Source: Oculatellaceae cyanobacterium bins.114
GTDB taxonomy: Bacteria; Cyanobacteriota; Cyanobacteriia; Elainellales; Elainellaceae
Assembly (NCBI GenBank): GCA_033764315.1
Contig: JANRJA010000203.1
Location: 20,678-84,677, forward strand
Length of the DNA: 64,000 nucleotides
Reading direction: 5' to 3'
Shown: piece after piece, positions 11,290 through 54,499 of the stretch
How the letters are laid out: every line of letters starts with the position of its first letter
Position numbering within the stretch: position 1 is the stretch's first letter
Made by a program: the position numbers and the translations under genes
The notes under the pieces: generated by a model
What the model was told of the DNA's origin: nothing
Seen by the model: only the letters and a program-made list of their open reading frames with translations
Databases searched by the model: none

Positions 11290-12038
11290 GGGGCAGTCGA
11301 AGCCGAGGAGGTATTAGAAGGAATGAGATTAATCTGACCGAGTTGTTCTTGCAGCCACGTGTTAAACAGCTCATTTAGCAAACGTCGCCGCATAGCGTCA
11401 TCTAACTGAGCTGGAATGAATCGCTCTAGTCGCACAATTACCAGCCACTCACCAACACGAGTCGGTGCCCACAACTGGCCAGGTTGACTGATAGAGAGCA
11501 TTTGCGCCAGAGTCGGATTGGGCACACTCAATTCAACAGGACCAATTAAACCATCGGTTTGTGCCTCTGGCCCTTGTGAATACGTGCGCGCCAACTCCGC
11601 AAAGGATTGTTCCCCTTCCAGCACTCGAAAATACACTTCTTGAGCAATCCCTAAATCTTGCGTCCGAATTAATGAATAGATAACGCGATCGAGTTGAGAT
11701 TTGCGATTGAGGAAATAGGACTCTAGCTTGGGGCCCCACGTTGATTGCTTAAATTTTTCAATCTTGACCTCACGCATGGCACGCGCCTCAAGCTGAGTGG
11801 CAGTCATGCCATGTTGTTGCAACCAGGCTCTACGGCTCTCTTCTGACGCCAAACCATGTTGAGCATAGAACTGTTGACAGGCCGCCTCTTTCTCTTCAGA
11901 GGTACATTCTATGGTGGCGATCGCCTGATCAATCAAGATCTCTTGTAGCAGTTGAGGCAGCATTTGATAGCTCGCTAATAGCGGAATAACCTCTTCTGCT
12001 AAAATCTGACGATTTCCAACCTGTAAAACGACAGTCAT
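11286..12038 (-). CDS. Peptidyl-prolyl isomerase-like protein (PpiC/parvulin type)
   Basis: 250 aa. The C-terminal half resembles a parvulin rotamase domain (FAELARTYSQGPEAQTDGLIGPV...WLVIVRLE). Its stop overlaps the ABC start (ATGA at 11286-11289). Confidence 0.7.
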   Translation of the reverse strand: MTVVLQVGNRQILAEEVIPLLASYQMLPQLLQEILIDQAIATIECTSEEKEAACQQFYAQHGLASEESRRAWLQQHGMTATQLEARAMREVKIEKFKQSTWGPKLESYFLNRKSQLDRVIYSLIRTQDLGIAQEVYFRVLEGEQSFAELARTYSQGPEAQTDGLIGPVELSVPNPTLAQMLSISQPGQLWAPTRVGEWLVIVRLERFIPAQLDDAMRRRLLNELFNTWLQEQLGQINLIPSNTSSASTAP

Positions 12039-13599
12039 TTAGGTTAATCTCTTGCACTTCATTAACGATCTACTTCTTTTAATCTCAGGCTGAACTGAGC
12101 CAACCTACCCTTTATTTATCTCATTTCACTTTATTTATCTCATTTGAAGATTAAGATGAACACTCATAATCTAAATTTTTCAGTATGGTATGTAACTTTT
12201 ATGAGTAAGCATACTAAGAAGACGACCTAAATGATCGTCCACTTTAGGTTAACTTCTGCTTATAACAGTGTCTTGATGAGATTGATATTTAGCAACGCTT
12301 TGTTACATCCAAGGCACTTCCAATCCAACTAATCGCCCTCAGAGAAGGTCTGAGAAATTCTTGGCAGTTAAAACCGCGACTACAAAAACAAAGTCCGCCC
12401 TAAACCCTTGAATTCTCAAGAAGGTAGTAGTTGACAGCCATTCTAGTCTGTCTGCGATCTAGAGCACCCTAGTAGACATCTGGTAAACATTATGTCTCGA
12501 ATCCGCCGTAGAGCAACTTGACGCCAGTGCGGCTCCCTTAAAAAAAGGGGTTTTATCTGCACCACCCCAGGCTTTTCTATAAAAAGAGACTTCTAAAAAA
12601 TAAATTGGGTTCAATTTTCTATCTTGACCCTACATATATACGCATAGCCATACGTATATACCTACATTAAGCCGAAGTTCCTCTCGTCTGATGAATTTCA
12701 GCTTAATTCTACGAATGAGGCAAAACCCTTACTTGCCAAGAGTTACCCGTAATTTATACACCTGTTCTATCTGGAGGTTGTGCTGAGTTATGAATTGAAC
12801 AGTTAAGAGATGATCATCACAGTCATGAGTAAAACTACACCTCAACAAACACTTTTCCTTAACATTAATCCCACTTGTGATCAAACACTCCGGAATGAGT
12901 CGTAAGTCTTGGGAATTAGGGAAGATCCTCCCCTGAGGGATAAAGCTCAACTGAGAGATTTTTCTAATGTCAATTAGTTTACTTTTCTACCCATTGATAG
13001 ATTAAGAATTTGTTTGCTCTACCTCTATAGGATGCTACTAAACCCCAAGACTGCTGTAGTAGACTCTAGTCAAGTCAGCCAACCTGGTTGAAATAGTAAT
13101 GGAAAGAAAGAGGCAAGCCGTTCACATTCGTTTGCATTTGGTGATCCAAACAGAGATTTTTGTAAATATCGACACCTTATTCAGGTTGTTGGGCCACTCG
13201 CTAGATCTCAATATCATCTCTTTTTTTCCTTCAAGACATTGAGACTCTTTCTACCGTAGCCTTTGGGCTGATTTTGTAGTTTAGACAACCACGAAAACCT
13301 TCTTATGAGATAGCTTGAGGGGGAGCTGAAGTGGTTTATCAAGGCGATCGCCTTTGTCAAAATCGTTTTGTGGTGTCTCACACCCATCTACCTAAATGCA
13401 TCTAGATGGGTAAAATCTATCTTTTATCTCCAATTACTTGAATCTCTTGGATCAACCGAGTAAAGTTATCAAAACTATAGCGACCCTACTCTTAGAAACT
13501 AGTTAGCAAAATTAAAGGAATACTCCAGGTACTTTCATAACAATTTTTTCAATTTTTGATATTGACAAAACCGATCATAGCTAGGATAACCATCTTCAT

Positions 13600-14844
13600 A
13601 TGACAGCAATATTCAATCATCACTCTGGGCAAGCAATGGAAAACTCTACGATGGATTCGACCGATACCTTGCAGTTTGAAACTGCTTTTGAGGATGACTT
13701 TTTTAATACCCTTGATACCAAGGAATTAGACACAGATGATGTCGAAGACATTCCTATTGATGTAATAGAGGATGTCATCAAAGATGTTGAACCAGAGACA
13801 GAAGACAGCTTGTCTGCATTTGCTGCTGATGATCAAGCCGATGAAGATGTAGAAGCGGTCATCGCTGAGCATTTTCCGGGATATCGAAAGACTATTTCTG
13901 ATGACGCAGTTGGCGCGTTCTTTAAAGAAATGGCGCGTTATCCTTTGCTCAAGGCAGATGAGGAAATTGAGCTAGCTCGACGGGTCAAATTTTTAATTGA
14001 AATTGAGGAGTTGCGCGATCGCCTCCAGACTGAGCTAGACCATAACCCTTCTAAAGCAGAGATTGCCGCTGCTTTAGAACTCAACGAACGTCAGCTCGAA
14101 CATCGCCTTTATCGCAGTCGCATGGCAAAGCGCAAAATGATTCGGTCAAACCTGCGCCTGGTCGTGTCGATCGCCAAGCGATATCTTAATCGGGGTGTTC
14201 CTTTCCTAGATCTAATTCAGGAAGGTGCTTTAGGCCTCAACCGAGCAACCGAAAAGTTTGACCCCGACAAGGGATACAAATTCTCAACCTATGCCTACTG
14301 GTGGATTCGGCAGGGCATTACTCGGACGATCGCCAACGATGCTCGCACTATTCGCCTGCCGATTCACATTGTTGAGAAGCTGAATAAGCTCAAGAAATCT
14401 CACCGAGAACTACGAAAAGAGCTGAATCGCAACCCAACTGAGGCCGAGTTAGCTGCTGCTCTTGATCTCACCCCTGACCAACTGCGCAATCTACAACAAG
14501 TGCGGCGGCGATCGCTCTCGCTTAACCATCGGGTCGGCAAAGGTGAAGACACTGAACTGATGGAATTGTTGGAAGACAGTAGCACGCTCTCTCCGGAAGC
14601 GCAGATGAGCGAAACTATGATGCGCCAAGAAATTCACAGCATCTTAGGAGATGTGTTGACCGAACGGGAGAAGGACATTATTTCATTGCGTTATGGATTA
14701 ACCACCGGGGAACCTCATACCCTCGAAGAAGTGGGGGGTTTGTTTAATCTCTCTCGCGAACGGGTACGTCAGATTCAAACAAAAGCGATGCGGAAGTTGC
14801 GCCGTCCTCAAGTGGCAGCACGACTCAAAAGTTGGTTGAGATAG
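13600..14844 (+). CDS. RpoD-family sigma-70 factor, group-2-like with acidic N-terminal extension
   Basis: 414 aa. Region 2 DLIQEGALGLNRATEKFDPDKGYKFSTYAYWWIRQGITR, region 3 TIRLPIHIVEKLNKLKK, region 4.2 LSRERVRQIQTKAMRKLR. The YAYWWIRQG and EKLNK variants are those of cyanobacterial group-2 factors. Confidence 0.9.
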   Translation: MTAIFNHHSGQAMENSTMDSTDTLQFETAFEDDFFNTLDTKELDTDDVEDIPIDVIEDVIKDVEPETEDSLSAFAADDQADEDVEAVIAEHFPGYRKTISDDAVGAFFKEMARYPLLKADEEIELARRVKFLIEIEELRDRLQTELDHNPSKAEIAAALELNERQLEHRLYRSRMAKRKMIRSNLRLVVSIAKRYLNRGVPFLDLIQEGALGLNRATEKFDPDKGYKFSTYAYWWIRQGITRTIANDARTIRLPIHIVEKLNKLKKSHRELRKELNRNPTEAELAAALDLTPDQLRNLQQVRRRSLSLNHRVGKGEDTELMELLEDSSTLSPEAQMSETMMRQEIHSILGDVLTEREKDIISLRYGLTTGEPHTLEEVGGLFNLSRERVRQIQTKAMRKLRRPQVAARLKSWLR

Positions 14845-17319: not shown

Positions 17320-17952
17320 TCAAACGCTCCCTTCTCCCAATACTCCGTTGAGAAAAATATCGGCAATCCCTTCTGCCATTTCCTGCATTTCTTGCGGAGA
17401 CGAATTTTCAGCCATCACCGTATCACGACTAAAGCCTGCTACTGCAAACATTCCCAAAAATACCTGGGCAACAATGCGCGGATTCATACGGCGATAAACA
17501 CCCTGATCCATCGCTGTTTGAAAGAAAGCCTCTGCAACATCGGTCATTTTGGCGATCACTTCTGCTTGAATGCGATCGCGCAACTCAGGATGAAATTGAG
17601 CTTCCATGAAGCACACCCGCAACATATCAGCATTGCGGTGCAGATTTAACATACGCTTTCGCATCACTTGAGCGATCGCTTTATAGCTACCCATCTCACT
17701 CAGTTCAGTGAGCAGATCGGTCAAAATTTCAATCCACCCTTGAGTCGCTACTTCTACTAAAATTGCCTTTTTGTTTTCAAAGTGGCGAAACAACGTGCCC
17801 TCAGCGACTCCTGCCGCTTCTGCAAGATCACGTGTCGTCGTGCCATCATAGCCACGACGAGCAAATAACCGCTGTGCTGCTTGAAGAATCCGAGTTCGAG
17901 TCTCCACCTCAGGTTGGGGTGGACGTTGAAAGATCTGCATCGCGGTAGCCAA
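17320..17952 (-). CDS. TetR/AcrR-family transcriptional regulator
   Basis: 210 aa with N-terminal HTH RILQAAQRLFARRGYDGTTTRDLAEAAGVAEGTLFRHFENKKAIL. Confidence 0.9.
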   Translation of the reverse strand: MATAMQIFQRPPQPEVETRTRILQAAQRLFARRGYDGTTTRDLAEAAGVAEGTLFRHFENKKAILVEVATQGWIEILTDLLTELSEMGSYKAIAQVMRKRMLNLHRNADMLRVCFMEAQFHPELRDRIQAEVIAKMTDVAEAFFQTAMDQGVYRRMNPRIVAQVFLGMFAVAGFSRDTVMAENSSPQEMQEMAEGIADIFLNGVLGEGSV

Positions 17953-18075
17953 GTGTGACAGACATCTGCATCGATCATTGTCGATCGGTTGTTTAAAACT
18001 GCGGCAGAAGATTTATACAACATTACGTTTGTTTAGAAATCTAGATTAAGGTTTGTGAGTAGAGAGAGGCTGAGG

Positions 18076-18110
18076 TTTGAATTTTGAGTTTTGAACTTTG
18101 AATTGTGAAT
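18076..18110. repeat. Five heptamers TTTGARN, the inverted complement of the 18165-18318 array
   Basis: tttgaat tttgagt tttgaac tttgaat tgtgaat. TTTGAGT is the exact reverse complement of ACTCAAA. Confidence 0.75.
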
Positions 18111-18164
18111 TAGAGGTCGAGAGCGATTAGAAATTGGCCATCGACTGTTATCTCAACACCCCGG

Positions 18165-18318
18165 CCTCAAACCTCAAACCTCAAACCTCAAACCTCAAAA
18201 CCCAAAACCCAAAACTCAAAACTCAAAACCCAAAACTCAAAACCCAAAACTCAAAACCCAAAACTCAAAACTCAAAACCCAAAACTCAAAACCCAAAACT
18301 CAAAACCCAAAACCCAAA
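18165..18318. repeat. Heptanucleotide tandem array (STRR-like), 22 units
   Basis: 5 x CCTCAAA (18165-18199) followed by 17 x AC(C/T)CAAA (18200-18318). It abuts the stop codon (18328-18330) of the TIR gene. Confidence 0.95.
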
Positions 18319-18327
18319 ACCTCCTAC

Positions 18328-19695
18328 CTAATAGTCCTCCTTAGGTGGACGGGTGACTCGTAAAATGAGCGCACTCAATCCTAGAAACCAAATCAGGGCG
18401 ATCAAATAGGCCATTGACATTAACTTACGTACTGATTGCTTAAGGCTAACCACATAATCGGCATGAACATCTAGCCCGATCGCCCCAACCACCACTCCAC
18501 GAGAATTACGAATGGGCGCATATGCAGCAAATTGGGCACCCCGTTGATCACGACTGACAAAGGTTGTGAGGCTGAGTTGCGAGAGCCCTTGATAAATAGC
18601 CGAGTTAGATTGATCGATTGTGAATGGCTGCCGAAATGTCGTTGCCTGTTCAGGAGCAATCTTTCTTAAAACGTCTCCAATGATCAAGATCTCACGAGGC
18701 TGATCACCCCAGGTATAGCTGTAGGGATTGGCATAGGGAACTAGAGTATGCACTCGATAGAGCCATTCTTGATGGCTGCGATAGAGAGCATTATTAGTGG
18801 GTTCAGTTTGTCCAGCAAGCAGAGGAGTGCGGGTCAGGGTGGCAAACTCCTCGCCATTTACTCCATCCACTGTCGCATTCAACGCCTGCACCATCTCGCC
18901 TTTAATACGAGCAACCGTGGTCTCCCAAAGATAGTAGTAAAACCAATAAAACCCTAAAGTGACGATCGCCATATTGACAACAACAGTTGTCACCATCACA
19001 ATCCATTTAGCGCGTTGGCGCGATTGATAAAGTGCCAGTTTGGCCGCTTGACTAGCATCAATGTAGCGGTTTTGAAGCTCGGTTGGCTTAAGGTCTTGGT
19101 TGATGCTGCTTGCAAGCCACTGCTCAGCATCCTTTAAGTCGCTGCCCCGTAATAAATAGCTGTCGTTGTAGTCTTTGCGTTTCCACTCGATCGCCCGAAC
19201 CAAAAGACGAGTGTGAGCATGGATATAGTCAATATCTGTGTTGACTGCCTGGAGCAATTCTTGAAAGGCGTGATCGAAGTCATCCGTTTCTCGGAAAAAG
19301 ATCCAGTTGTGTTTGCTGATTTGAGGGTGCACTTGTTGAGGATCAAATCCCTCTCGCCGCACGATTGGCAAAAAGCGTTTGTGGCAATGAGTCGCGTATT
19401 CAATTTCATCTCGACAAACCTTAGAGGTAACTGAGTCAGGGCTAATCACAAAAATGAATGTGCTAGCAGACTCAATGCCTCGTTGAATGGCTTGCCACCA
19501 CTCTTCCCCTTTATAGATGTCATTCCAATCAACCCACGGATCTTGCCCAACCCGCTTAAATGCCCCGTCTAGCATCTCAACAAATGCTTTATCTCGACGA
19601 GAGTAAGAGATAAATACCTCGTTGGTTGGTGCTTTAGTCTCACTGGGTTGTGATTGAGTATGAACAGCAATATTAGACGATTGACCCTCAAGCAT
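18328..19695 (-). CDS. TIR-domain protein with TM - Cache/PDC-like extracytoplasmic domain - TM
   Basis: 455 aa. TIR at aa ~26-150 (VFISYSRRD; SPDSVTSKVCRDEIEYA; FLPIV). Helical module HTRLLVRAIEW...LLRGSDLKDAEQWL. Hydrophobic spans at aa ~231-256 and ~425-445 bracket a ~170-aa domain ending RDQRGAQFAAYAPIRNSRGVVVGAIGLDVHADYV. Confidence 0.85.
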   Translation of the reverse strand: MLEGQSSNIAVHTQSQPSETKAPTNEVFISYSRRDKAFVEMLDGAFKRVGQDPWVDWNDIYKGEEWWQAIQRGIESASTFIFVISPDSVTSKVCRDEIEYATHCHKRFLPIVRREGFDPQQVHPQISKHNWIFFRETDDFDHAFQELLQAVNTDIDYIHAHTRLLVRAIEWKRKDYNDSYLLRGSDLKDAEQWLASSINQDLKPTELQNRYIDASQAAKLALYQSRQRAKWIVMVTTVVVNMAIVTLGFYWFYYYLWETTVARIKGEMVQALNATVDGVNGEEFATLTRTPLLAGQTEPTNNALYRSHQEWLYRVHTLVPYANPYSYTWGDQPREILIIGDVLRKIAPEQATTFRQPFTIDQSNSAIYQGLSQLSLTTFVSRDQRGAQFAAYAPIRNSRGVVVGAIGLDVHADYVVSLKQSVRKLMSMAYLIALIWFLGLSALILRVTRPPKEDY

Positions 19696-19824
19696 GATTG
19701 ATGCCCCCGACAGCAGTGATTATTTGCTTGTACTCACTCTAAACGACCGTTTTGAAAGGGTAAAGGATTAAACACTGAAGCGTAGAATAAGGTCGATTTT
19801 TATTCTTGATGTTTTGCCAGCTAA

Positions 19825-19893
19825 CTGAGGACATAGAGGGTGTGGGGGCGGTGCCCCCAGCCAGGGGTTCCACCCCTGCACCCCGTCCTAACC
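19825..19893. repeat. GC-rich double-hairpin dispersed repeat (inverted copy of 44080-44131)
   Basis: Its reverse complement reads GGTTAGGACGGGGTGCAGGGGTGGAACCCCTGGCTGGGGGCACCGCCCCCACACCCTC..CCTCAG. The copy at 44080 reads GGTTAGAACGGGGTGCACCCCTGGCTAGGGCTTTGCCCCCAAACCTCCTCAG. Confidence 0.8.
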
Positions 19894-19925
19894 TGAATGA
19901 CTACGGCTATACCTCTCATCTTGGC

Positions 19926-22706
19926 TCACGGTTTCTGCTGAAACTGTTGACAAGTGTTTTGAGCACCTGCGATCGCGTCTTTTTCAGACGGAGTCAGTTT
20001 TGCATTCAAGTGTGCCAAGAAACTATAACCTTGAAACTGATTACAGGCGATCGCTAACCACCGTTGCCAGGTCATATCGTGCCAAAGATACAGCGTGCCC
20101 ATCTCATCTCCAGTCACAATCGTGTGTCCGTCAGGTTGAAAAGCAACGGCAGAGATGACTTTACCTTGTTCTCTAAACGCCTGCCCCAGTGGATTGCCGT
20201 TGGTGTCCCACAGTCTCAGAGTGCCATCTTCACTGGTGCTCGCGATCGTTTTTCCATCAGGGCTATAGGCAACAGCCGTGATATAGCCTTCATGTCCTTG
20301 AAACGGACTGCCCAACAGCCTTTTTGCCTCGACATCCCACTGCCGCAAAATGCCATCGCCCCCTGCACTCACCACCACCTCTCCCGTTGGGTTAAAGGCA
20401 ACAGCTGCAATGCCAAACTGCTGCTCTTCTTGAAAAACGGCTAGAGAACGCCCTTGCAGATCCCACAGGCGAATGGTGGAGTCATCGCCACTACTGGCAA
20501 TCAAGTCTCCCTTTGGGCTAAAAGCCACCGATCGGACGCTGCTTTGATGTCTCTGAAAGGGTTGCCCTATCGGTCGCTGTTCTTTGACGCTCCATAACTG
20601 AATTGTGCCATCGTCGCTACCACTGATAACCGTTTGACCATCGGGGCTGAAGGCGACCGATTGAATCGCCCCATCATGCTCTACCAAAGGTGCTCCGAGA
20701 GGTTGCCGTTGCTGCACATCCCAAAAGCGGAGTGAGCCATCAGCTCCAGCACTGACTAAAACGGTACCAGAGGGATCAAAAGCGATCGCATTCACCCCAT
20801 CTGAATGGGCTTGCAACGGAGAACCAACCTGTTTCCCAGTGATATCCCAAAAGCGAATGGTGCCATCGTCACTGGCACTGGCAAAGGTGCGATCGTGGGG
20901 ATTAAAGGCGATGGATGGAATAGCATCGTCATGGGCTGACACCCGTTGACTTGTCATCAGATTTTGCACATTCCACAGGCGAATCGTGCGATCGGCACTG
21001 GCGCTAATCAAGGTTTCGCCATCTAAGCTAAACACAGCAGGAAAGACAAACCCCTCATGTCCGCGAATGGGGGTGCCGATCGCGTTGCCCTGCAAATCCC
21101 ACAGGCGAATGGTGCGATCGTTACTAGCACTAGCGATCGTCTGACCATCGGGACTAAAGACAACGGCTTGAATGGCAGATTCATGCCCAATGAACGGTAA
21201 GTCGATGGGGTTGCCCTCCAAATCCCATAGACGCACCGTGTTGTCACTTCCTCCACTGATCAGCTTTTGACCATCAGGGCTAAAGGCAACGGTCAATACG
21301 GCACCGTCATGCCCTCGAAAGGGTTCTCCCTGCGGTTGTCCTTGACGATTCCACAGGCGAATGGTGTCATCTACACTGCCGCTAGCGATGATTTGACCAT
21401 TAGGGCTAAATACAACACTATACACAGAGTCGCTGTGCCCCTCAAACGGTTTTCCGATTGCCTGCCCTGATACATCCCATAGGTACACCTTCCCATCATC
21501 ACTCCCGCTGACGATCTGCTGGCTATCAGGGCTAATTGCCAGTGAGTTTACAGCCCGATTTTGGGCTTGAACTGATTCGCCAATCCGATGTCCATCTGCT
21601 GTCCATCGCACAATCCTACCGTTGGCATCACCACTGACAATCAGTTGCCCATCAGGACTCCAGGCGATCGCATAAATTTCGGAGTCACTCGCCTGAATTG
21701 GTTCCCCAATCGGCTCACCCGTTTCCAAATTCCAGAATCGCAGAACACCTTTATTATCAGTACTCGCTAATCGTGTTCTATCTGGATTCAGGGCGATCGC
21801 ATAGATCTCTCCCTCATGCCCCAACAAACGGTCTTTTTCTCGATTGCCCTGAATCGCGCTGAGTAAACTCGCTCGTGCTTCATCAAAGACCTCCTGTGAA
21901 GGGTTTTGTAGACTAGTACCGATCGTGTGTAGTGCCAAAATCAATCCACTGGTTGGCTTTACCGCCATCAAATTATTGACTCGTGCGACTCTTTCCCGTA
22001 ACTCTGCCTCAGCTCGTCGATGGTGTTCTGCCTTACGATATTGCTCAAATGCAATTAGGGTTGAAGTTGCCGTAATCACCAACCCCAGTGAAATGGCACC
22101 TATCGTTAAGCGTTCTCGTCGAACCACTTTGCGGCTGGTACAAACAAAATCGATCTGCAAGGGCGCAGGTTGAGGATCTTTAGTTCCTGCCTCAGTCAGC
22201 CATCGTTCTGCCTTTCTTAAGTCACGGCCTCTCAGCAAACAACTTGAGTCTTGTCCTTGCTCCTTCCATTCGTTGGCTCGCACCAACAGCCGAGTGTGAA
22301 AGGTAACGTGTTCCAGGTCGGTTTCGAGTGTCTTGATTAACTTTGCAACCGATTCATCAAAGGAATTCGTTTCTTTGAAAAAAATCCAGTTGATGGACGC
22401 CAAGGTTGGATGAACCTGGCCGTATTGCACCTCTTTGCAGACGATCGGGATAAGCCGCTTACTAGAGGCGACCGCCAGTTCTAACTCAATACTGCATTCT
22501 CGTGATGCCACCCATTCTGGGCTGAGCACAAAAACAACCGCATTGGCTTGTTTAATGCCATCAGCAATTTCAGCCCGCCAATCCGCACTGGGGGGAATAT
22601 CTTCCCAATCGATCCAGACATCCTTACCCTGCCCCACTAAAAAACTGTGGAGTTTATCAACAAATTCCTTATCTCTACGACAGTAGGAAATAAATACATC
22701 TGTCAT
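19926..22706 (-). CDS. TIR-domain protein with hydrophobic span and 14 WD40 repeats
   Basis: Start moved to ATG 22706 (GGAGG 4 nt upstream; the track ORF extends to 22808). 926 aa. TIR motifs VFISYCRRD, SPEWVASRECSIELELA and LIPIV. Helical module HTRLLVRANEW...LLRGRDLRKAERWL. Hydrophobic segment LTIGAISLGLVITATSTLIAF at aa ~200-220. Fourteen ~42-aa WD40 units (GH..V..VAFSPDG..I.SGS.D.TIRLWD) at ~20070-21840. Confidence 0.9.
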   Translation of the reverse strand: MTDVFISYCRRDKEFVDKLHSFLVGQGKDVWIDWEDIPPSADWRAEIADGIKQANAVVFVLSPEWVASRECSIELELAVASSKRLIPIVCKEVQYGQVHPTLASINWIFFKETNSFDESVAKLIKTLETDLEHVTFHTRLLVRANEWKEQGQDSSCLLRGRDLRKAERWLTEAGTKDPQPAPLQIDFVCTSRKVVRRERLTIGAISLGLVITATSTLIAFEQYRKAEHHRRAEAELRERVARVNNLMAVKPTSGLILALHTIGTSLQNPSQEVFDEARASLLSAIQGNREKDRLLGHEGEIYAIALNPDRTRLASTDNKGVLRFWNLETGEPIGEPIQASDSEIYAIAWSPDGQLIVSGDANGRIVRWTADGHRIGESVQAQNRAVNSLAISPDSQQIVSGSDDGKVYLWDVSGQAIGKPFEGHSDSVYSVVFSPNGQIIASGSVDDTIRLWNRQGQPQGEPFRGHDGAVLTVAFSPDGQKLISGGSDNTVRLWDLEGNPIDLPFIGHESAIQAVVFSPDGQTIASASNDRTIRLWDLQGNAIGTPIRGHEGFVFPAVFSLDGETLISASADRTIRLWNVQNLMTSQRVSAHDDAIPSIAFNPHDRTFASASDDGTIRFWDITGKQVGSPLQAHSDGVNAIAFDPSGTVLVSAGADGSLRFWDVQQRQPLGAPLVEHDGAIQSVAFSPDGQTVISGSDDGTIQLWSVKEQRPIGQPFQRHQSSVRSVAFSPKGDLIASSGDDSTIRLWDLQGRSLAVFQEEQQFGIAAVAFNPTGEVVVSAGGDGILRQWDVEAKRLLGSPFQGHEGYITAVAYSPDGKTIASTSEDGTLRLWDTNGNPLGQAFREQGKVISAVAFQPDGHTIVTGDEMGTLYLWHDMTWQRWLAIACNQFQGYSFLAHLNAKLTPSEKDAIAGAQNTCQQFQQKP

Positions 22707-22743
22707 GGTGCCTCCAGCTTGGCGGAAGTGGCAGTTGCAAAGA

Positions 22744-23019
22744 TTAAGAAGGTCGTGGAGCCGGAGAACGTGGAGTCGGAGATGGAGTGGTCGTTTCACA
22801 GGGACCAAGACGGGAAGTCTCCTGACGCCGACAGGGAGGAGTTCTCACTGCTTTGGGTTCGCCTGTTTTGGATAGGGTGGTATGAGGCGATTCTCCTTTG
22901 AGGGCGATCGCTGCTGCATATAAAGGTGTTGTAGCAATTAACGGCAACAAAGCCCCTGTGATGAGAGTAGCTCCTAATAGTAGGCTTGCGAGTTTATCTT
23001 TATATCTAGTTTGAGTCAT
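22744..23019 (-). CDS. Small membrane protein with Pro/Thr/Arg-rich tail (91 aa)
   Basis: Hydrophobic helix LASLLLGATLITGALLPLIATTPLYAAAIAL followed by the tail ...TTTPSPTPRSPAPRPS. Its ATG overlaps the stop of the upstream gene (ATGA, 23016-23019). It ends 37 nt before the TIR-WD40 start. Confidence 0.5.
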   Translation of the reverse strand: MTQTRYKDKLASLLLGATLITGALLPLIATTPLYAAAIALKGESPHTTLSKTGEPKAVRTPPCRRQETSRLGPCETTTPSPTPRSPAPRPS

Positions 23020-23729
23020 CTTCTTCCCTCACCCCAGTTACCAGAAGGACGAACCCTTCTTCCATCAAAACGAACAATGGGTCCTTCAATGCTAGTGCCG
23101 TCTGCGTTACAAACTTCAATTTCTCTTACAATTTGCTCTTGGCCATCACTGTATACACCTCTAAAGTCATAAAGACATTCGTTGGAGTCAACAGGAATTA
23201 TGGCTATATCACCCGGAGATAGCTCCTGTGCAATTAGATCTTCACCCCAGTCGGCTTGAGTGACCGGAGTGAAATAAATTTCTAATAACGGAAGATCAGC
23301 CGTGTTTTGGATATTAAACGTTCTATCGTTGTCGTCGTAGTAGGTGTAAGTACCCTCGTCAATGCAGAGATCGACCTGATTTTCGTCAATGGGTGGTCCT
23401 TGATCAAACACACCTCGGACATCATAGAAACAGTCACTCCGACTGTCATCCACAACAATTTCTCGGACATCTCCCGGAGCAACCGAATCACCCTGCAACT
23501 TCTCAGCTTCTTCTTCCCAGGTAGATACATCGGTTGGCGAGACATAAAACTCCAACAACGTATAGTCTGTGAAGTTTTCAACCGTAAATGATAAGGGATC
23601 GCTCAGCTCATCTTGAGCCAATGCTCGTTGACCCCTAAAGGGGAAGTGCGTTGCATCGCCTCCCCAAGTCAAAATGGGTAAAGTCACAGCAGTTGCGATC
23701 AGAACTGAGTGACCCAGGTTTTTAAGCAT
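23016..23729 (-). CDS. Exported acidic protein made of two ~85-aa Cys-containing repeats
   Basis: Start moved to ATG 23729 (AGGAG 7 nt upstream). N-terminal signal-like MLKNLGHSVLIATAVTLPILTW. Repeat 1 is FTVENFTDYTLLEFYVSP..W.....PGD..EIVVDDSRSDCFYDVRGVFDQG....VDLC. Repeat 2 is FNIQNTADLPLLEIYFTP..W.....PGD..IIPVDSNECLYDFRGVYSDG....IEVC. Confidence 0.65.
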   Translation of the reverse strand: MLKNLGHSVLIATAVTLPILTWGGDATHFPFRGQRALAQDELSDPLSFTVENFTDYTLLEFYVSPTDVSTWEEEAEKLQGDSVAPGDVREIVVDDSRSDCFYDVRGVFDQGPPIDENQVDLCIDEGTYTYYDDNDRTFNIQNTADLPLLEIYFTPVTQADWGEDLIAQELSPGDIAIIPVDSNECLYDFRGVYSDGQEQIVREIEVCNADGTSIEGPIVRFDGRRVRPSGNWGEGRR

Positions 23730-50163: not shown

Positions 50164-51942
50164 TCAGGTTATCACCAACAACTCTGGAGGCAGGTCTGAA
50201 CGGAGAGGCAACGTCACTGTAAAGGTTGTCCCTATCCCTTCTTTACTGGTAAAGGTGATGGTTCCTTGATGATGGGCAACGCACTCTCGAACGATCGCCA
50301 GACCTAACCCTGTTCCACGAATGGTGCTGACATTACTAGCCCGGTGGAATAGCTCAAACAAGCGAGGTTGATCATCCGAGGGAATTCCAATGCCCTCATC
50401 TTGAATCACGAAAACAGCACTGTACTGATCACACGATAAGTGAAACGTCACAATGCTCTTAATGGGTGAATATTTAATCGCGTTAGAGAGCAAGTTTGTC
50501 AAAATCGATCGCAATAGTTTTGGATCCGCTTTTACCTCTGCACAGTCTCCTTCAGCCGCAAAAGCAATCTCATAATTGCTGCCCACCCCCATTTGCATCT
50601 CTTCCACAATTTCATAACAAAACTGCTTGAGGTCAAGCGTGGTCGGGTTAAACTCTAATCGACCTGCATCTGCCTTGCCAATCGTCAAAACATCTTCTAA
50701 CAATTGAGTCATGTTTTGCACCGCCATCTGACTCCGTTGAAAATATTCTCGCTTTTTAGACTCAGTGACAACATCGTGATAACGCTCTAGCAATTCAAGA
50801 GACGTCCGAATGACCGTCAATGGGGTGCGTAGCTCATGAGACACCATCGAGACAAACCGAGACTTTAACTCATTCAACTCCCGCTCTTCTTGCAGTGCCA
50901 ATTGCATCTCATATTCTGCTTGCTTGCCCTGGCGAATCATGTGCTCACGCGTGCGAATGCTGTCTACCATCGTCTCAAACACTTGTGCCAGGGTGTTTAG
51001 CTCATCTGGAAAAGGGCTTTTTGTGAGAGATGACAGATCCAGACTATAGGCTCCATCTCCAATGCGCTTAGCAGACTCTGTTAACTCAGTCAACTGCTGA
51101 GTCAACGCCCCCGACAAAAAGTAAATCAAGATAAATAGAACGGCATAGGTAATGACAAATGAAATCAAAACAAGGCTCCGAACTTCGGTCTGCACTTGAT
51201 GCACATAGTCTGCCTGAATGTCTAATCCCAGAACGGCTACAATTTCGCCACGCTCGTCTCTTAACGGGGCAAATGCCGACAACCAAGTTCCCCATTGGTC
51301 GGTATAGATTTTAGGAGTTTCAACAATTTCACCCTCTCGCAAGACTTGGTAAGTGACTGGACTGGGGACATCAGCCTGCAAAAATCGAGCCGCTTTCGAC
51401 GGGTCATACACAGACCATAAATCAGTTAAATAGACAATTTCTAATTGATCAGGTTTAACGGCTGGTGCCCCTATTCGGCGATTGTTGCGTGCCGTACCCA
51501 CAGCATAGGAATAGAGCCAAACTCGTGGCTCAACTGAATGCACCGTTTGAAACCAGCGCAATTGATTGATATAGCGCAAGTCGCTTGAAAAACCACTGGG
51601 ATTGCGTTCTCCCTCTGCGTAAAGTGCCATTAACTCGTCAACATCCACTCCAGCCGCTGCGCCAATCAATGTTGTTCTCATGTCAGCTTTTAGCCGAGTC
51701 ATGATCTTGGCAGTTGCAAATGTATAGAACCAGTAGAAAGCACCCGCAAAGACAATGCTAAATACGATACTAAAACCGATTAGCAACTTGACCCGTAGGC
51801 TAACTGGTTGATTGTATCTTTTTGACTGCTTGGAGGCTGTTTGTCGCTCTACTGAGAGAGGGGGCTGCTGCAATTTGACCTCGTTGAAGGCGTAAATCAG
51901 AAAGTATTGAACTGTAACTGCCAACGGATAGGCTACTTGCAT
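50164..51942 (-). CDS. Sensor histidine kinase (TM - Cache/PDC-like - TM - HAMP - HisKA - HATPase)
   Basis: 592 aa. H-box VSHELRTPL, N-box LSNAIKYSP, G-boxes QDEGIGI and GTGLGLAIV. The periplasmic domain (aa ~76-255) is paralogous to that of the TIR protein at 18328-19695. Confidence 0.9.
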   Translation of the reverse strand: MQVAYPLAVTVQYFLIYAFNEVKLQQPPLSVERQTASKQSKRYNQPVSLRVKLLIGFSIVFSIVFAGAFYWFYTFATAKIMTRLKADMRTTLIGAAAGVDVDELMALYAEGERNPSGFSSDLRYINQLRWFQTVHSVEPRVWLYSYAVGTARNNRRIGAPAVKPDQLEIVYLTDLWSVYDPSKAARFLQADVPSPVTYQVLREGEIVETPKIYTDQWGTWLSAFAPLRDERGEIVAVLGLDIQADYVHQVQTEVRSLVLISFVITYAVLFILIYFLSGALTQQLTELTESAKRIGDGAYSLDLSSLTKSPFPDELNTLAQVFETMVDSIRTREHMIRQGKQAEYEMQLALQEERELNELKSRFVSMVSHELRTPLTVIRTSLELLERYHDVVTESKKREYFQRSQMAVQNMTQLLEDVLTIGKADAGRLEFNPTTLDLKQFCYEIVEEMQMGVGSNYEIAFAAEGDCAEVKADPKLLRSILTNLLSNAIKYSPIKSIVTFHLSCDQYSAVFVIQDEGIGIPSDDQPRLFELFHRASNVSTIRGTGLGLAIVRECVAHHQGTITFTSKEGIGTTFTVTLPLRSDLPPELLVIT

Positions 51943-52381
51943 CTTAAACGAAAGCCACTGCTTCTATCAGTGCATCAACTTCCAAAACACTGATTCAGCA
52001 TTGCTCTTACATGCTCTTTTCAATCAAAATTGAGGATATCCTGATACTTTTGGTTGCAACCTATAACAAATAAGGGTAGTCGTCTAAAAGTAATGATTTT
52101 TGAGTAAGGATACGCTGCGATGAGCGGGGCATATCCTTACTTGTTTAGGGCTACCCCAATCAATAGGTGGGAGTCATTAATTGTAAGATGCGTTTCGACT
52201 GCGCGTTCAATTAAGCTCACGCCGAAGTCTCACCGCTCTCATCTCTCTGACAGCGAGTTAAATGGAGTCAAAACCCGAATTCTAAACTGAGTTTAATGAG
52301 GTTCTCTACTTATAACCAGCTAGTTTAAATGATGAGAAAAATTGTGGCAGCATTTCTCTCTCATAAAATCTCTCTGCTATC

Positions 52382-52409
52382 TATAGCAATCCTAAATGGG
52401 TTGTGAGAG
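52382..52409. repeat. Solo left-end copy of the TATAGCAATCC element (28 nt identical to 52696-52723)
   Basis: TATAGCAATCCTAAATGGGTTGTGAGAG is present at both positions. Confidence 0.85.
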
Positions 52410-52660
52410 ATGTAAACAACTCATCTAATCACAGCTTGAGAGTTAAGTGTGCTTGATTACTCTGCTATTAGCGATGACCCATTGATCACGAATACCAGAC
52501 AGTTGCTTTCTAGCAATTTTTGGGCTTTCAGATCACACTACTTTTAATCAGTCGCTACTTAGTTGAGGCACAGTTCATGCTCTCAGGAAGATTTTGCAAA
52601 CCCTCTTGTGAACCTGTGCCATCTATCAGAAGGGTAATAGAAGGTAATAGGTGTAATCAT

Positions 52661-52693
52661 AAAAAACCGTACTGCTTTATAAAGTAGTACGGT
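52661..52693 (-). terminator. Intrinsic-terminator-like hairpin for a minus-strand transcript
   Basis: The plus strand reads AAAAAACCGTACTGCTTTATAAAGTAGTACGGT. On the minus strand this is a ~13-bp near-perfect stem followed by U6. Confidence 0.5.
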
Positions 52694-52695
52694 GA

Positions 52696-52796
52696 TATAG
52701 CAATCCTAAATGGGTTGTGAGAGTCGCACCCCGGAGGGGTGCGACTCTCACAACCTCACAACCTCCTAATTTCACAAATGATTTAGGACGGCTATA
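52696..52796. mobile_element. MITE-like ~100-nt palindromic element
   Basis: Outer inverted ends TATAGCAATCCTAAAT / ATTTAGGACGGCTATA. The core is a perfect 20-bp stem, GGTTGTGAGAGTCGCACCCC-gga-GGGGTGCGACTCTCACAACC (52713-52755). No coding capacity. Confidence 0.6.
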
Positions 52797-52884
52797 GTTC
52801 AGAATAAAAATCTATGGCGTAGCGGCAGATTTCCGGGGAGAGTCTATCTAAAAAACAGGTTTATAGAAGCTTGAAATAGTTTGT

Positions 52885-52917
52885 AAAAGCTCTCATCTTT
52901 CAACTTGAGAGTTTTTT
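52885..52917 (+). terminator. Weak terminator-like hairpin plus T6
   Basis: AAAAGCTCTCA-tctttcaact-TGAGAGTTTTTT. Only 6 strong base pairs. Confidence 0.35.
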
Positions 52918-52961
52918 ACAAACCCGTTGCTGATCCTTGCTGATGGATGAGTCCAGTCAGA

Positions 52962-52996
52962 AGTTGTGAAAGAGTTGTGAAAAGGTTGTGAAAGAG
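52962..52996. repeat. Three tandem copies of GTTGTGAAA(G/A)AG (11-12-nt period)
   Basis: agttgtgaaag agttgtgaaaag gttgtgaaagag. GTTGTGA also occurs in the arm of the neighbouring hairpin element. Confidence 0.85.
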
Positions 52997-53539
52997 TATA
53001 AAAAGTATTCGAGACAAGCAAGCGATCGCACTAAACGAAATTAATTACAGCTTGGATAGATAGCTCGATCACAGGGTGGGTTTTTGAGTTGAAAGTCAAT
53101 CAATACGTGCTGATTAATGGAAGTGCTCATCGTTGAGGTCACGAACATGACGATTGCAAGAAGGATTTCCATAGGAACTAAATAGGGTAACTGCACCTGT
53201 GCAACATCATGTCTGATCAGTATCCAATTTGCGATCCGAGCATTTAACTATTCTTTTCTTAAAAAATCGATTGTCTTCGTAGATCTACGGGGTCTGAAGT
53301 AATTTTTATGGGCATCTCAGGCATTTTATAAACTCTTAAGGAAAATAAAAAATATCCTCTAAGCCTGCTATGACTGGGTTTTGACAACTGGCCGATGGAG
53401 GTGAGACAAAACCTTGTTACAAGTTTTGTATTCTTGAGCAAAGCAATTTGCCAGGTTACACACTGCGGTAAGCTTGAATGAGTGGCTAAACGCCCATTGG
53501 TTTAATATTTCACTGTATTTCTAAACAGCGCTTCACAAA

Positions 53540-54499
53540 ATGGTTGCAAGTCTCCCTCGCACGATTCGGATTGGTTCCCGCAAAAGTCAGCTTGCTCTAG
53601 TTCAAACCCATTGGGTGCAAGAGCAGTTGCAACAAGCGTTTCCCAACCGAGTCTTTGACGTTCATACCATGAGTACACATGGTGACAAGATTTTAGACGT
53701 GGCACTCGCTAAGATTGGTGATAAAGGGCTGTTTACCAAAGAGCTTGAAGTTGGCATGGTCAATGGAGATATTGATTTTGCGGTTCACTCTCTCAAAGAT
53801 CTGCCAACCCGATTGCCCGATGGCTTAGTCCTAGGCTGTGTTACTGAGCGCGAAAATCCGGCTGACGCACTGGTGGTTCATGCCAAACATCACGATAAAC
53901 AGGTCGATACCTTACCTGAAGGGGCGGTTATTGGTACTTCCTCGTTGCGGCGATTGGCTCAACTGCGGCACCACTATCCTCATTTGACATTCAAAGATGT
54001 TCGGGGAAACTTGAATACTCGCCTCCAAAAATTAGATTCTGGGGAATATGATGCCCTCATTTTGGCGGCGGCTGGGTTGCACCGTTTGGGCATGAGCGAT
54101 CGCATTCATCAGGTATTGCCACCCGATATATCACTTCATGCGGTTGGGCAAGGGGCATTGGGCATTGAATGTCGTGCTGATGATACTGAAGTTTTGACCT
54201 TATTAAAAGAACTAGAGCATCGGCCAACCGCCTTACGGTGTTATGCTGAGCGTTCTTTTTTGCGAGAGTTAGAGGGTGGCTGTCAGGTGCCGATTGGCGT
54301 CAACACTGAGTTAGAGGGAGATACGTTAACCCTGGTTGGCTTGGTTGCCAGTCTAGACGGACAACGGTTGATTAAAGATCGTGTGACGGGTTCAGCAGAG
54401 CAAGCCGAACAACTGGGGATTGACTTAGCTCATCGACTCAAGCAACAAGGGGCACAAGCCATTTTAGATGAGATTTTTGCCACGATTCAGCGGAGTTAA
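53540..54499 (+). CDS. hemC: Hydroxymethylbilane synthase (porphobilinogen deaminase)
   Basis: 319 aa: [26 protein letters not shown], and the C-terminal cofactor-Cys region [10 protein letters not shown]. Confidence 0.95.

Follow-up and report, generated by a model that had tools for sequence, protein, structure and literature searches.

A TIR protein of filamentous cyanobacteria with a predicted extracytoplasmic PDC/Cache-like domain related to histidine kinase sensor modules

Introduction

We describe a 455-residue protein from Oculatellaceae cyanobacterium bins.114, in which an N-terminal TIR domain is joined, through a helical linker and a transmembrane helix, to a PDC/Cache-like domain predicted to lie outside the cytoplasm. 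Its gene occupies positions 18328-19695 of the window, by which we mean the whole stretch of DNA that was analysed (64,000 nt; contig JANRJA010000203.1, positions 20,678-84,677, assembly GCA_033764315.1). TIR domains are common to the innate immunity of animals, plants, and bacteria. To our knowledge, the characterised bacterial TIR systems all sense cytoplasmic cues, among them nucleic acids and cyclic nucleotides as well as proteins of phages. We consider it probable, with appreciable room for doubt, that the protein described here is a single-protein transmembrane receptor with PDC/Cache-like sensing and TIR activity as its output. If this is true, prokaryotic TIR signalling would be extended to outside-in sensing, and the repertoire of Cache/PDC sensors would gain a TIR output class. 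Since the protein is compact (455 residues), encoded by a single gene, and conserved, the proposal is directly testable.

Results

Architecture of the TIR-sensor protein

The gene runs without interruption from an ATG start to its stop codon. The product comprises, in this order, the TIR domain, a helical linker, a first transmembrane helix (TM1), a domain of 166 residues, a second transmembrane helix (TM2), and a tail of nine residues. An initial annotation, made from the sequence alone, had proposed this layout, and its coordinates proved right to within one or two residues. The features of the gene are as follows.

18328..19695, (-): complete gene from the list of open reading frames, 455 codons plus stop, ATG start; TIR, linker, TM1, predicted PDC/Cache-like ectodomain, TM2, short tail
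19240..19620, (-): TIR domain, residues 26-152; Pfam TIR_2, E=1.1e-26
19405..19407, (-): codon of Glu97, aligned with the glutamate of TIR NADase motifs
19009..19239, (-): helical linker, residues 153-229 (motif HTRLLVRAxEW...LLRGxDL...W); AlphaFold2 helices, conserved, part of a TIR-linker-TM cassette
18925..19008, (-): TM1, residues 230-257; hydropathy and column frequencies
18427..18924, (-): PDC/single-Cache-like sensor domain (predicted), residues 258-423; AlphaFold2, Foldseek, homology to kinase sensor modules
18358..18426, (-): TM2, residues 424-446; hydropathy and column frequencies
18331..18357, (-): predicted cytoplasmic tail, residues 447-455 (VTRPPKEDY); 'TRP' corresponds to the HAMP-start residues of kinase-type relatives

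A 100% identical protein has been deposited at NCBI from a metagenome-assembled genome (MAG) of an Oculatellaceae cyanobacterium. Full-length orthologues form about 80 clusters with 41-79% identity and lengths of 435-490 residues. They come from thin filamentous cyanobacteria (Leptolyngbya, Oculatella, Kovacikia, Halomicronema, Stenomitos, Alkalinema, Crinalium, Nodosilinea, and related genera), apart from a single full-length orthologue found outside the cyanobacteria, in a Chloroflexota MAG. The initial annotation had called for a database search of this kind. Among the 80 matches listed in our genome scan by full-length alignment, most were paralogues of the cassette described below. Mean pairwise identity among the orthologues is highest in the TIR domain (0.69), lower in the linker (0.57), and lowest in the ectodomain (0.36). 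AlphaFold2 modelled the full-length protein from the orthologue alignment with a predicted local distance difference test (pLDDT) score of 86.3. The models of PADLOC and NCBIfam match the TIR part only.

A predicted PDC/Cache-like ectodomain

The middle domain, including the string 'DQRG...HADYV' that we located at residues 383-415, had been read as a Cache/PDC sensor, and structure prediction supports this assignment. When residues 225-455 were modelled alone, AlphaFold2 returned a pLDDT of 93.6 and a predicted TM-score (pTM) of 0.83, with pLDDT above 90 over most of the ectodomain. In the model, the N-terminal part is a long helix that is continuous with TM1. Two short helices follow, then six strands arranged as an antiparallel sheet, and finally a helix leading into TM2 (helices 2-54, 57-64, and 79-94 in the numbering of the model, together with six strands). 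Three ectodomain residues, F284, R344, and G404, are invariant among the orthologues.

A Foldseek search against the PDB returned 42 matches at E<1e-3, mostly extracytoplasmic Cache/PDC sensor domains. They include the WalK ectodomain (TM-score to the target 0.65-0.68), the dCache domains of Tlp3, TlpA, and TlpC, as well as Tlp1, KinD, DctB, and the formate sCache domain 8py0; the Foldseek probability was 1.00 for WalK, Tlp3, KinD, DctB, and 8py0. GAF domains and two coiled-coil/regulator entries made up the remainder. We rejected a GAF identity for the ectodomain, as the GAF matches rank below those to Cache/PDC domains and GAF domains are cytoplasmic.

Because the fold matches are confident and the Cache matches at the sequence level stay below threshold, we regard the modelled ectodomain as a divergent PDC/Cache-like family outside every curated model. 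Its probable role is to bind a small ligand or to report the state of the envelope.

Relatives of the sensor module

We searched 1.84 billion representative proteins exhaustively with phmmer, using residues 225-455 as the query, and found 241 relatives of the sensor module at the threshold of E<1e-3. The module is near-complete in 115 relatives; in 97 of these it is N-terminal and followed by more protein, and 11 carry an N-terminal extension. Pfam domains were assigned for 105 relatives with a near-complete module: 63 contain HAMP and 25 HATPase_c, TIR_2 occurs in six and nSTAND1 in two, and HisKA, HisKA_3, GAF, PAS, and Response_reg were also found. Some of the relatives have weak scores for dCache_1, sCache_3_3, and Cache_3-Cache_2. 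For dCache_1 or sCache_3_3, E-values of 1e-5 to 1e-6 were obtained with a few of them, and the listed scores for dCache_1 and Cache_3-Cache_2 are below the cut-off.

One relative is encoded in the window itself.

50164..51942, (-): paralogous histidine kinase of 592 residues with TM, sensor, TM, HAMP, HisKA, and HATPase_c; Pfam, tblastn, BLASTP

The sensor of this kinase (residues 68-277) shares 29% identity with the ectodomain of the TIR protein (E=8e-21, tblastn and BLASTP). By sequence comparison, the ectodomain and the sensor modules of HAMP-containing proteins and histidine kinases are homologues, and the sensor-kinase type suspected earlier is upheld by the kinase paralogue and by the 97 relatives of modular build. 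Because the periplasmic domain of the kinase is paralogous, one genome holds one sensor family with two outputs. This amounts to a natural experiment, in which the same module is coupled to HAMP via TM2 in the kinase and to TIR via TM1 in the protein described here.

The same C-terminal TM-sensor-TM unit is also found in a protein with three tandem TIR domains (875 residues), in a TIR-nSTAND1 protein (854 residues), and in a protein with nSTAND1 only (779 residues). In the nSTAND1 variants, the PDC-like membrane domain stands where STAND NTPases usually carry a WD40 or TPR sensor arm. Most common among the relatives of the sensor module are proteins of about 340-360 residues with TM, sensor, TM, HAMP, and a conserved helical C-terminus of about 80 residues ('LxIxxDxxKxxxxVxEI...FFxxLxxKA'). 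This segment, which has no Pfam match, may be an output or a partner-binding segment. The sensor-HAMP type of about 340-360 residues is also present on a Deinococcus plasmid (locus L086, 2453-3478).

Membrane topology and the C-terminal tail

Kyte-Doolittle analysis revealed exactly two hydrophobic segments, residues 230-257 and 424-446, in agreement with the two-helix frame proposed at the outset, whose TM1 string maps to residues 230-257; the peaks in a 19-residue window begin at residues 229-235 and 422-432. The flank on the N-terminal side of TM1 contains four Lys/Arg and no Asp/Glu residues. The two segments and the positive cytoplasmic flank predict an extracytoplasmic domain held between two membrane helices. 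As homologous modules lead directly into a cytoplasmic HAMP domain, homology likewise places the ectodomain outside the cytoplasm, and the TIR domain and the tail in it, as predicted locations.

Column frequencies in the TIR-sensor family show that Asn241 in TM1 and Trp436 in TM2 are invariant, and that Thr236/Thr237 in TM1 and Ser441 in TM2 are conserved. The Asn of TM1 is missing from the kinase-coupled sensor modules, and both TM1 and TM2 have polar residues that are specific to the TIR family. AlphaFold2 predicts linker helices at residues 155-173, 184-199, and from 206 onward. The last of these belongs to a single continuous helix spanning residues 206-277 with high pLDDT, which connects the linker on the cytoplasmic side with the ectodomain by way of TM1.

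The tail had been described as ten residues following TM2. It is present (RVTRPPKEDY when Arg446 is included), and its exact length past TM2 is nine residues. The motif [TS][RQ]P occurs in 45 of the 80 orthologues, the family tail reads 'LR(A/V)TRPP', and relatives bearing HAMP have the consensus 'TRPIxxLT' immediately past TM2. Because the 'TRP' of the tail matches the HAMP start of the relatives, the comparison shows a sensor module taken from a HAMP sensor and cut at the first HAMP residues. As noted initially, the usual output is absent and the N-terminal TIR domain is the only other domain; the protein stops at these residues.

A rival explanation is a sensor-kinase remnant: the gene would be a pseudogene left by truncation or fusion, or the ectodomain would be a mere membrane anchor without sensing. 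The three HAMP residues retained in the tail would fit such a remnant, and so would the position of a repeat array abutting the stop codon, which the initial annotation had also placed directly behind the gene.

18166-18320: heptamer array CTCAAAA x22, 90% match; 8 bp lie between its end and the stop codon of the TIR-sensor gene

We consider this explanation very improbable, because all of the about 80 clusters end shortly past TM2, every orthologue stopping 9-30 residues beyond it, and no kinase sequence lies downstream; the gene is followed on its 3' side by the heptamer array and then by a TetR gene, with no kinase-like sequence. The common ends and architecture are kept down to 41% identity, a Chloroflexota MAG encodes the architecture as well, and the ectodomain combines invariant residues with a confident fold.

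The TIR domain

Pfam TIR_2 (PF13676) matches residues 27-148 over the whole length of the model with 94.2 bits against a cut-off of 28 bits, which agrees with the TIR domain initially placed at residues ~26-150; its cytoplasmic location is predicted from the homology to HAMP-containing relatives. The best Foldseek matches to this part are the TIR domains of SPARTA TIR-APAZ, SARM1, and AbTir. PADLOC TIR models match at 1e-13, and the ThsB_TIR model gives E=2e-4 only.

Glu97 is invariant across the 80 orthologues and aligns with the glutamate in plant TIR 'CLDEL', Cat1 'CWDEL', and PdTIR 'KEL'. In TIR NADases, the catalytic glutamate occupies this position. The TIR-sensor protein may well be an NADase itself. 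TIR enzymes form their active site on self-association.

A multi-copy TIR-linker-TM cassette

The TIR domain, the linker, and one TM (residues ~25-250) together constitute a multi-copy cassette, of which a second copy is encoded immediately upstream.

19926..22808, (-): upstream neighbour with TIR, linker, one TM, and 14 WD40 repeats (Pfam WD40 x14); paralogue of the N-terminal cassette

A gap of 230 bp separates the two genes. The neighbour comprises 960 residues, and its N-terminus is 43% identical to the TIR-linker part over 191 residues, with one hydrophobic segment at residues 234-255. Its listed TTG start is probably too far upstream; Met35 ('MTDVFISY') at position 22706 is the likely start. 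If the TIR domain of the neighbour is cytoplasmic, its propeller region of about 700 residues would lie outside the cytoplasm, an unusual location for WD40.

Among species-representative genomes, we found cassette relatives in at least 571 stretches, often several per genome: at least six loci in Stenomitos rutilans, four in Lyngbya sp. HA4199-MV5, and three, including one on a plasmid, in Leptolyngbya sp. BL-A-14. The cassette also occurs in Anaerolineae. WD40 follows the TM in 45 of the 58 cassette paralogues examined, and others carry ARC6-IMS-like (PF13355) or CHAT domains. Nearly all have one TM at about residues 205-260.

Gene context

Synteny is kept only with the closest relative, from Oscillatoria sp. 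FACHB-1407 (79% identity), where it includes the large upstream gene. The five more distant orthologues have unrelated neighbours and have not kept the gene pair with TIR-WD40; one of these loci contains other TIR genes within 4 kb. No ThsA-type (SIR2/Macro-SLOG) gene was found in the window or at the six orthologue loci. A scan of positions 17900-23100 for promoters and terminators gave sites no more numerous than in shuffled sequence. The TIR-sensor gene looks self-contained.

The CTCAAAA array behind the gene resembles the short tandem heptamer repeats of cyanobacteria, and an open reading frame on the (+) strand at 18134-18331, with KTQNPKL repeats, is this array in translation. A smaller TTTGAAT/14-mer array lies nearby at 18071-18111. 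The G+C content is lower at 12001-14000 (0.39) and at 52001-54000 (0.42) than in the window as a whole (~0.48).

Proposed mechanism and alternatives

In the mechanism that we propose, the ectodomain would reside in the periplasm (or the thylakoid lumen) between the two membrane helices and would read a small ligand or the state of the envelope; a metabolite, the envelope state, and phage contact are candidate triggers. In kinases, the signal exits by TM2 and HAMP. The module of the TIR protein ends where HAMP would start and is joined via its N-terminal helix and TM1 to the linker and the TIR domain, and TM1 appears remodelled in the TIR-coupled form (invariant Asn241, Thr236/Thr237). A change in the ectodomain would travel down the continuous helix (206-277) and on through the linker, and would alter the packing of TIR domains from neighbouring protomers, which would switch on TIR activity. 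NAD+ cleavage would be the likely result, with one of two consequences: NAD+ depletion with growth arrest or death, or a NAD-derived signal.

Several observations weigh against this mechanism. As for the TIR domain, Val93 stands at -4 from Glu97, with a conservation of at least 90% across the TIR-sensor family, in place of the Trp aligned in PdTIR, plant TIR, and Cat1, so that the protein does not carry the WxxxE motif. In some TIR enzymes, this Trp helps to build the active site and to determine the product. Because Val93 replaces it, catalysis or its product may be atypical, or activity may be absent. As for the sensor, the Pfam check invited by the initial annotation succeeded for TIR_2, and no curated Cache model passed its threshold: the best, Cache_3-Cache_2, reached 12.5 bits against 27.7 and covered residues 389-424 only, on the last two strands of the ectodomain. 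A profile of 25 family sequences likewise gave nothing significant against the PDB sequences and retrieved no solved Cache structure; its best matches, LOV/PAS domains and 8py0, fall on the last two strands with E~0.5-0.8. Signalling through TM1 would be unusual, as the Cache/PDC kinases that have been studied signal via TM2 (PMC7857512). Neither a partner gene nor a receptor for TIR products proved to be conserved across six orthologue loci, these loci do not have the setting of a defence island, and the searches of plasmids and phages gave no full-length copy. Lastly, WD40, a protein-binding fold, is the usual partner of the cassette, and the TIR domain might act as a scaffold instead.

As such a scaffold, a non-enzymatic TIR domain would recruit TIR-linker proteins, e.g., the adjacent TIR-WD40 protein, through TIR-TIR contacts, as animal Toll-like receptors do with their adaptors. 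The many TIR-linker-TM paralogues per genome, the TIR-WD40 paralogue retained next to the gene in the closest relative, and the missing Trp all point in this direction, whereas the invariant glutamate at the catalytic position, the nearest structures being TIR domains of SPARTA, SARM1, and AbTir, and the loss of the gene pair in the more distant orthologues argue against it. We judge the scaffold improbable.

More credible, although still unlikely in our view, is that the protein serves as an envelope-level sentinel against phages: phage attachment, DNA injection, or envelope damage, rather than a metabolite, would trigger NAD+ depletion, and the infected cell would die and thereby protect the filament, as in abortive infection. 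This is a sub-case of the receptor reading, because the mechanism is the same and only the trigger and the purpose differ. TIR NADases are typical effectors of defence systems, and the PADLOC TIR models do match; relatives couple the same sensor to an nSTAND1 NTPase; and the sensor part has diverged more quickly than the effector. The multi-copy cassette, confined to multicellular phyla, fits what has been described for conflict systems (PMC7159879), and Kiwa, Zorya, and SNIPE set a precedent for phage sensing at the membrane (PMC13434031). On the other hand, the orthologue neighbourhoods are housekeeping or mixed rather than defence islands, save the one locus near other TIR genes, copies on plasmids or phages were not found, and the homologous sensor modules serve ordinary two-component kinases.

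The receptor reading, which we continue to favour, can be widened into a tentative picture that we would hold at somewhat less than even odds. Filamentous bacteria might possess a repertoire in the style of Toll-like receptors, with one TIR-linker-TM cassette and interchangeable outward domains (WD40, ARC6-IMS-like, PDC/Cache-like). Its PDC member, a single-protein receptor, would respond to a chemical cue from outside the cell directly by cleaving NAD+ or producing a NAD-derived messenger, working 'backwards' via TM1, and the outcome could be cell suicide or a filament-level behaviour such as sacrificial cells or the containment of an infection.

Comparison with known systems

The TIR protein shares the TM1-domain-TM2 frame, the long N-terminal helix, and the PAS-like alpha/beta core with the Cache/PDC sensors of histidine kinases and chemoreceptors, such as WalK, DctB, KinD, and Tlp3. 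The strand motif 'PY.D..G.W.S..PI.N..G..VG..G.D' is also held in common, and the direct homologues bear HAMP and kinase outputs. Unlike these sensor proteins, the TIR protein has no output past TM2, its other domain is N-terminal to TM1, and TM1 contains the family-specific Asn and Thr residues.

Bacterial TIR NADase effectors (SPARTA, Thoeris ThsB, TIR-STING, TIR-SAVED, TIR-STAND/NLR-like proteins of multicellular bacteria; Kaur et al., 2020; PMC7159879) resemble it in the N-terminal TIR domain, the conserved glutamate, the C-terminal sensing part, and the enrichment in filamentous organisms. They differ in that the sensor of the TIR protein is membrane-embedded and predicted to be extracytoplasmic, and in that the TIR protein has no NTPase, Argonaute, cyclic-nucleotide sensor, ThsA-type partner, or conserved operon. 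The central STAND NTPase of the STAND/NLR-like TIR conflict proteins is likewise absent from it and present in two of its relatives, the TIR-nSTAND1 and nSTAND1-only proteins.

Animal Toll-like receptors follow a similar logic of ectodomain, membrane, and cytoplasmic TIR domain, and similarly comprise paralogues with differing ectodomains on one TIR cassette. In the cyanobacterial protein, the TIR domain is N-terminal and probably enzymatic, there are two TM helices, and a predicted PDC fold takes the place of the LRR. The likeness is best seen as an analogy, with homology limited to the TIR fold.

Our full-text literature search found no description of a fusion of TIR with a Cache/PDC ectodomain, in line with the initial annotation, which knew of no described system with a TIR domain coupled to an extracytoplasmic small-ligand sensor; the search was thin on subscription journals, and its outcome is hence weak evidence. 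The nearest published idea is the caspase-CHASE2 combination in cyanobacterial conflict systems (Kaur et al., 2021; PMC8195603), an article in which Cache is nowhere mentioned. Caspase-CHASE2 and similar conflict proteins resemble the TIR protein in that, in cyanobacteria, they combine an effector of death or conflict with an extracellular sensor of the small-molecule type that is flanked by membrane segments. The two differ in their parts, the effector being a caspase instead of TIR and the sensor CHASE2 instead of a PDC/Cache-like domain.

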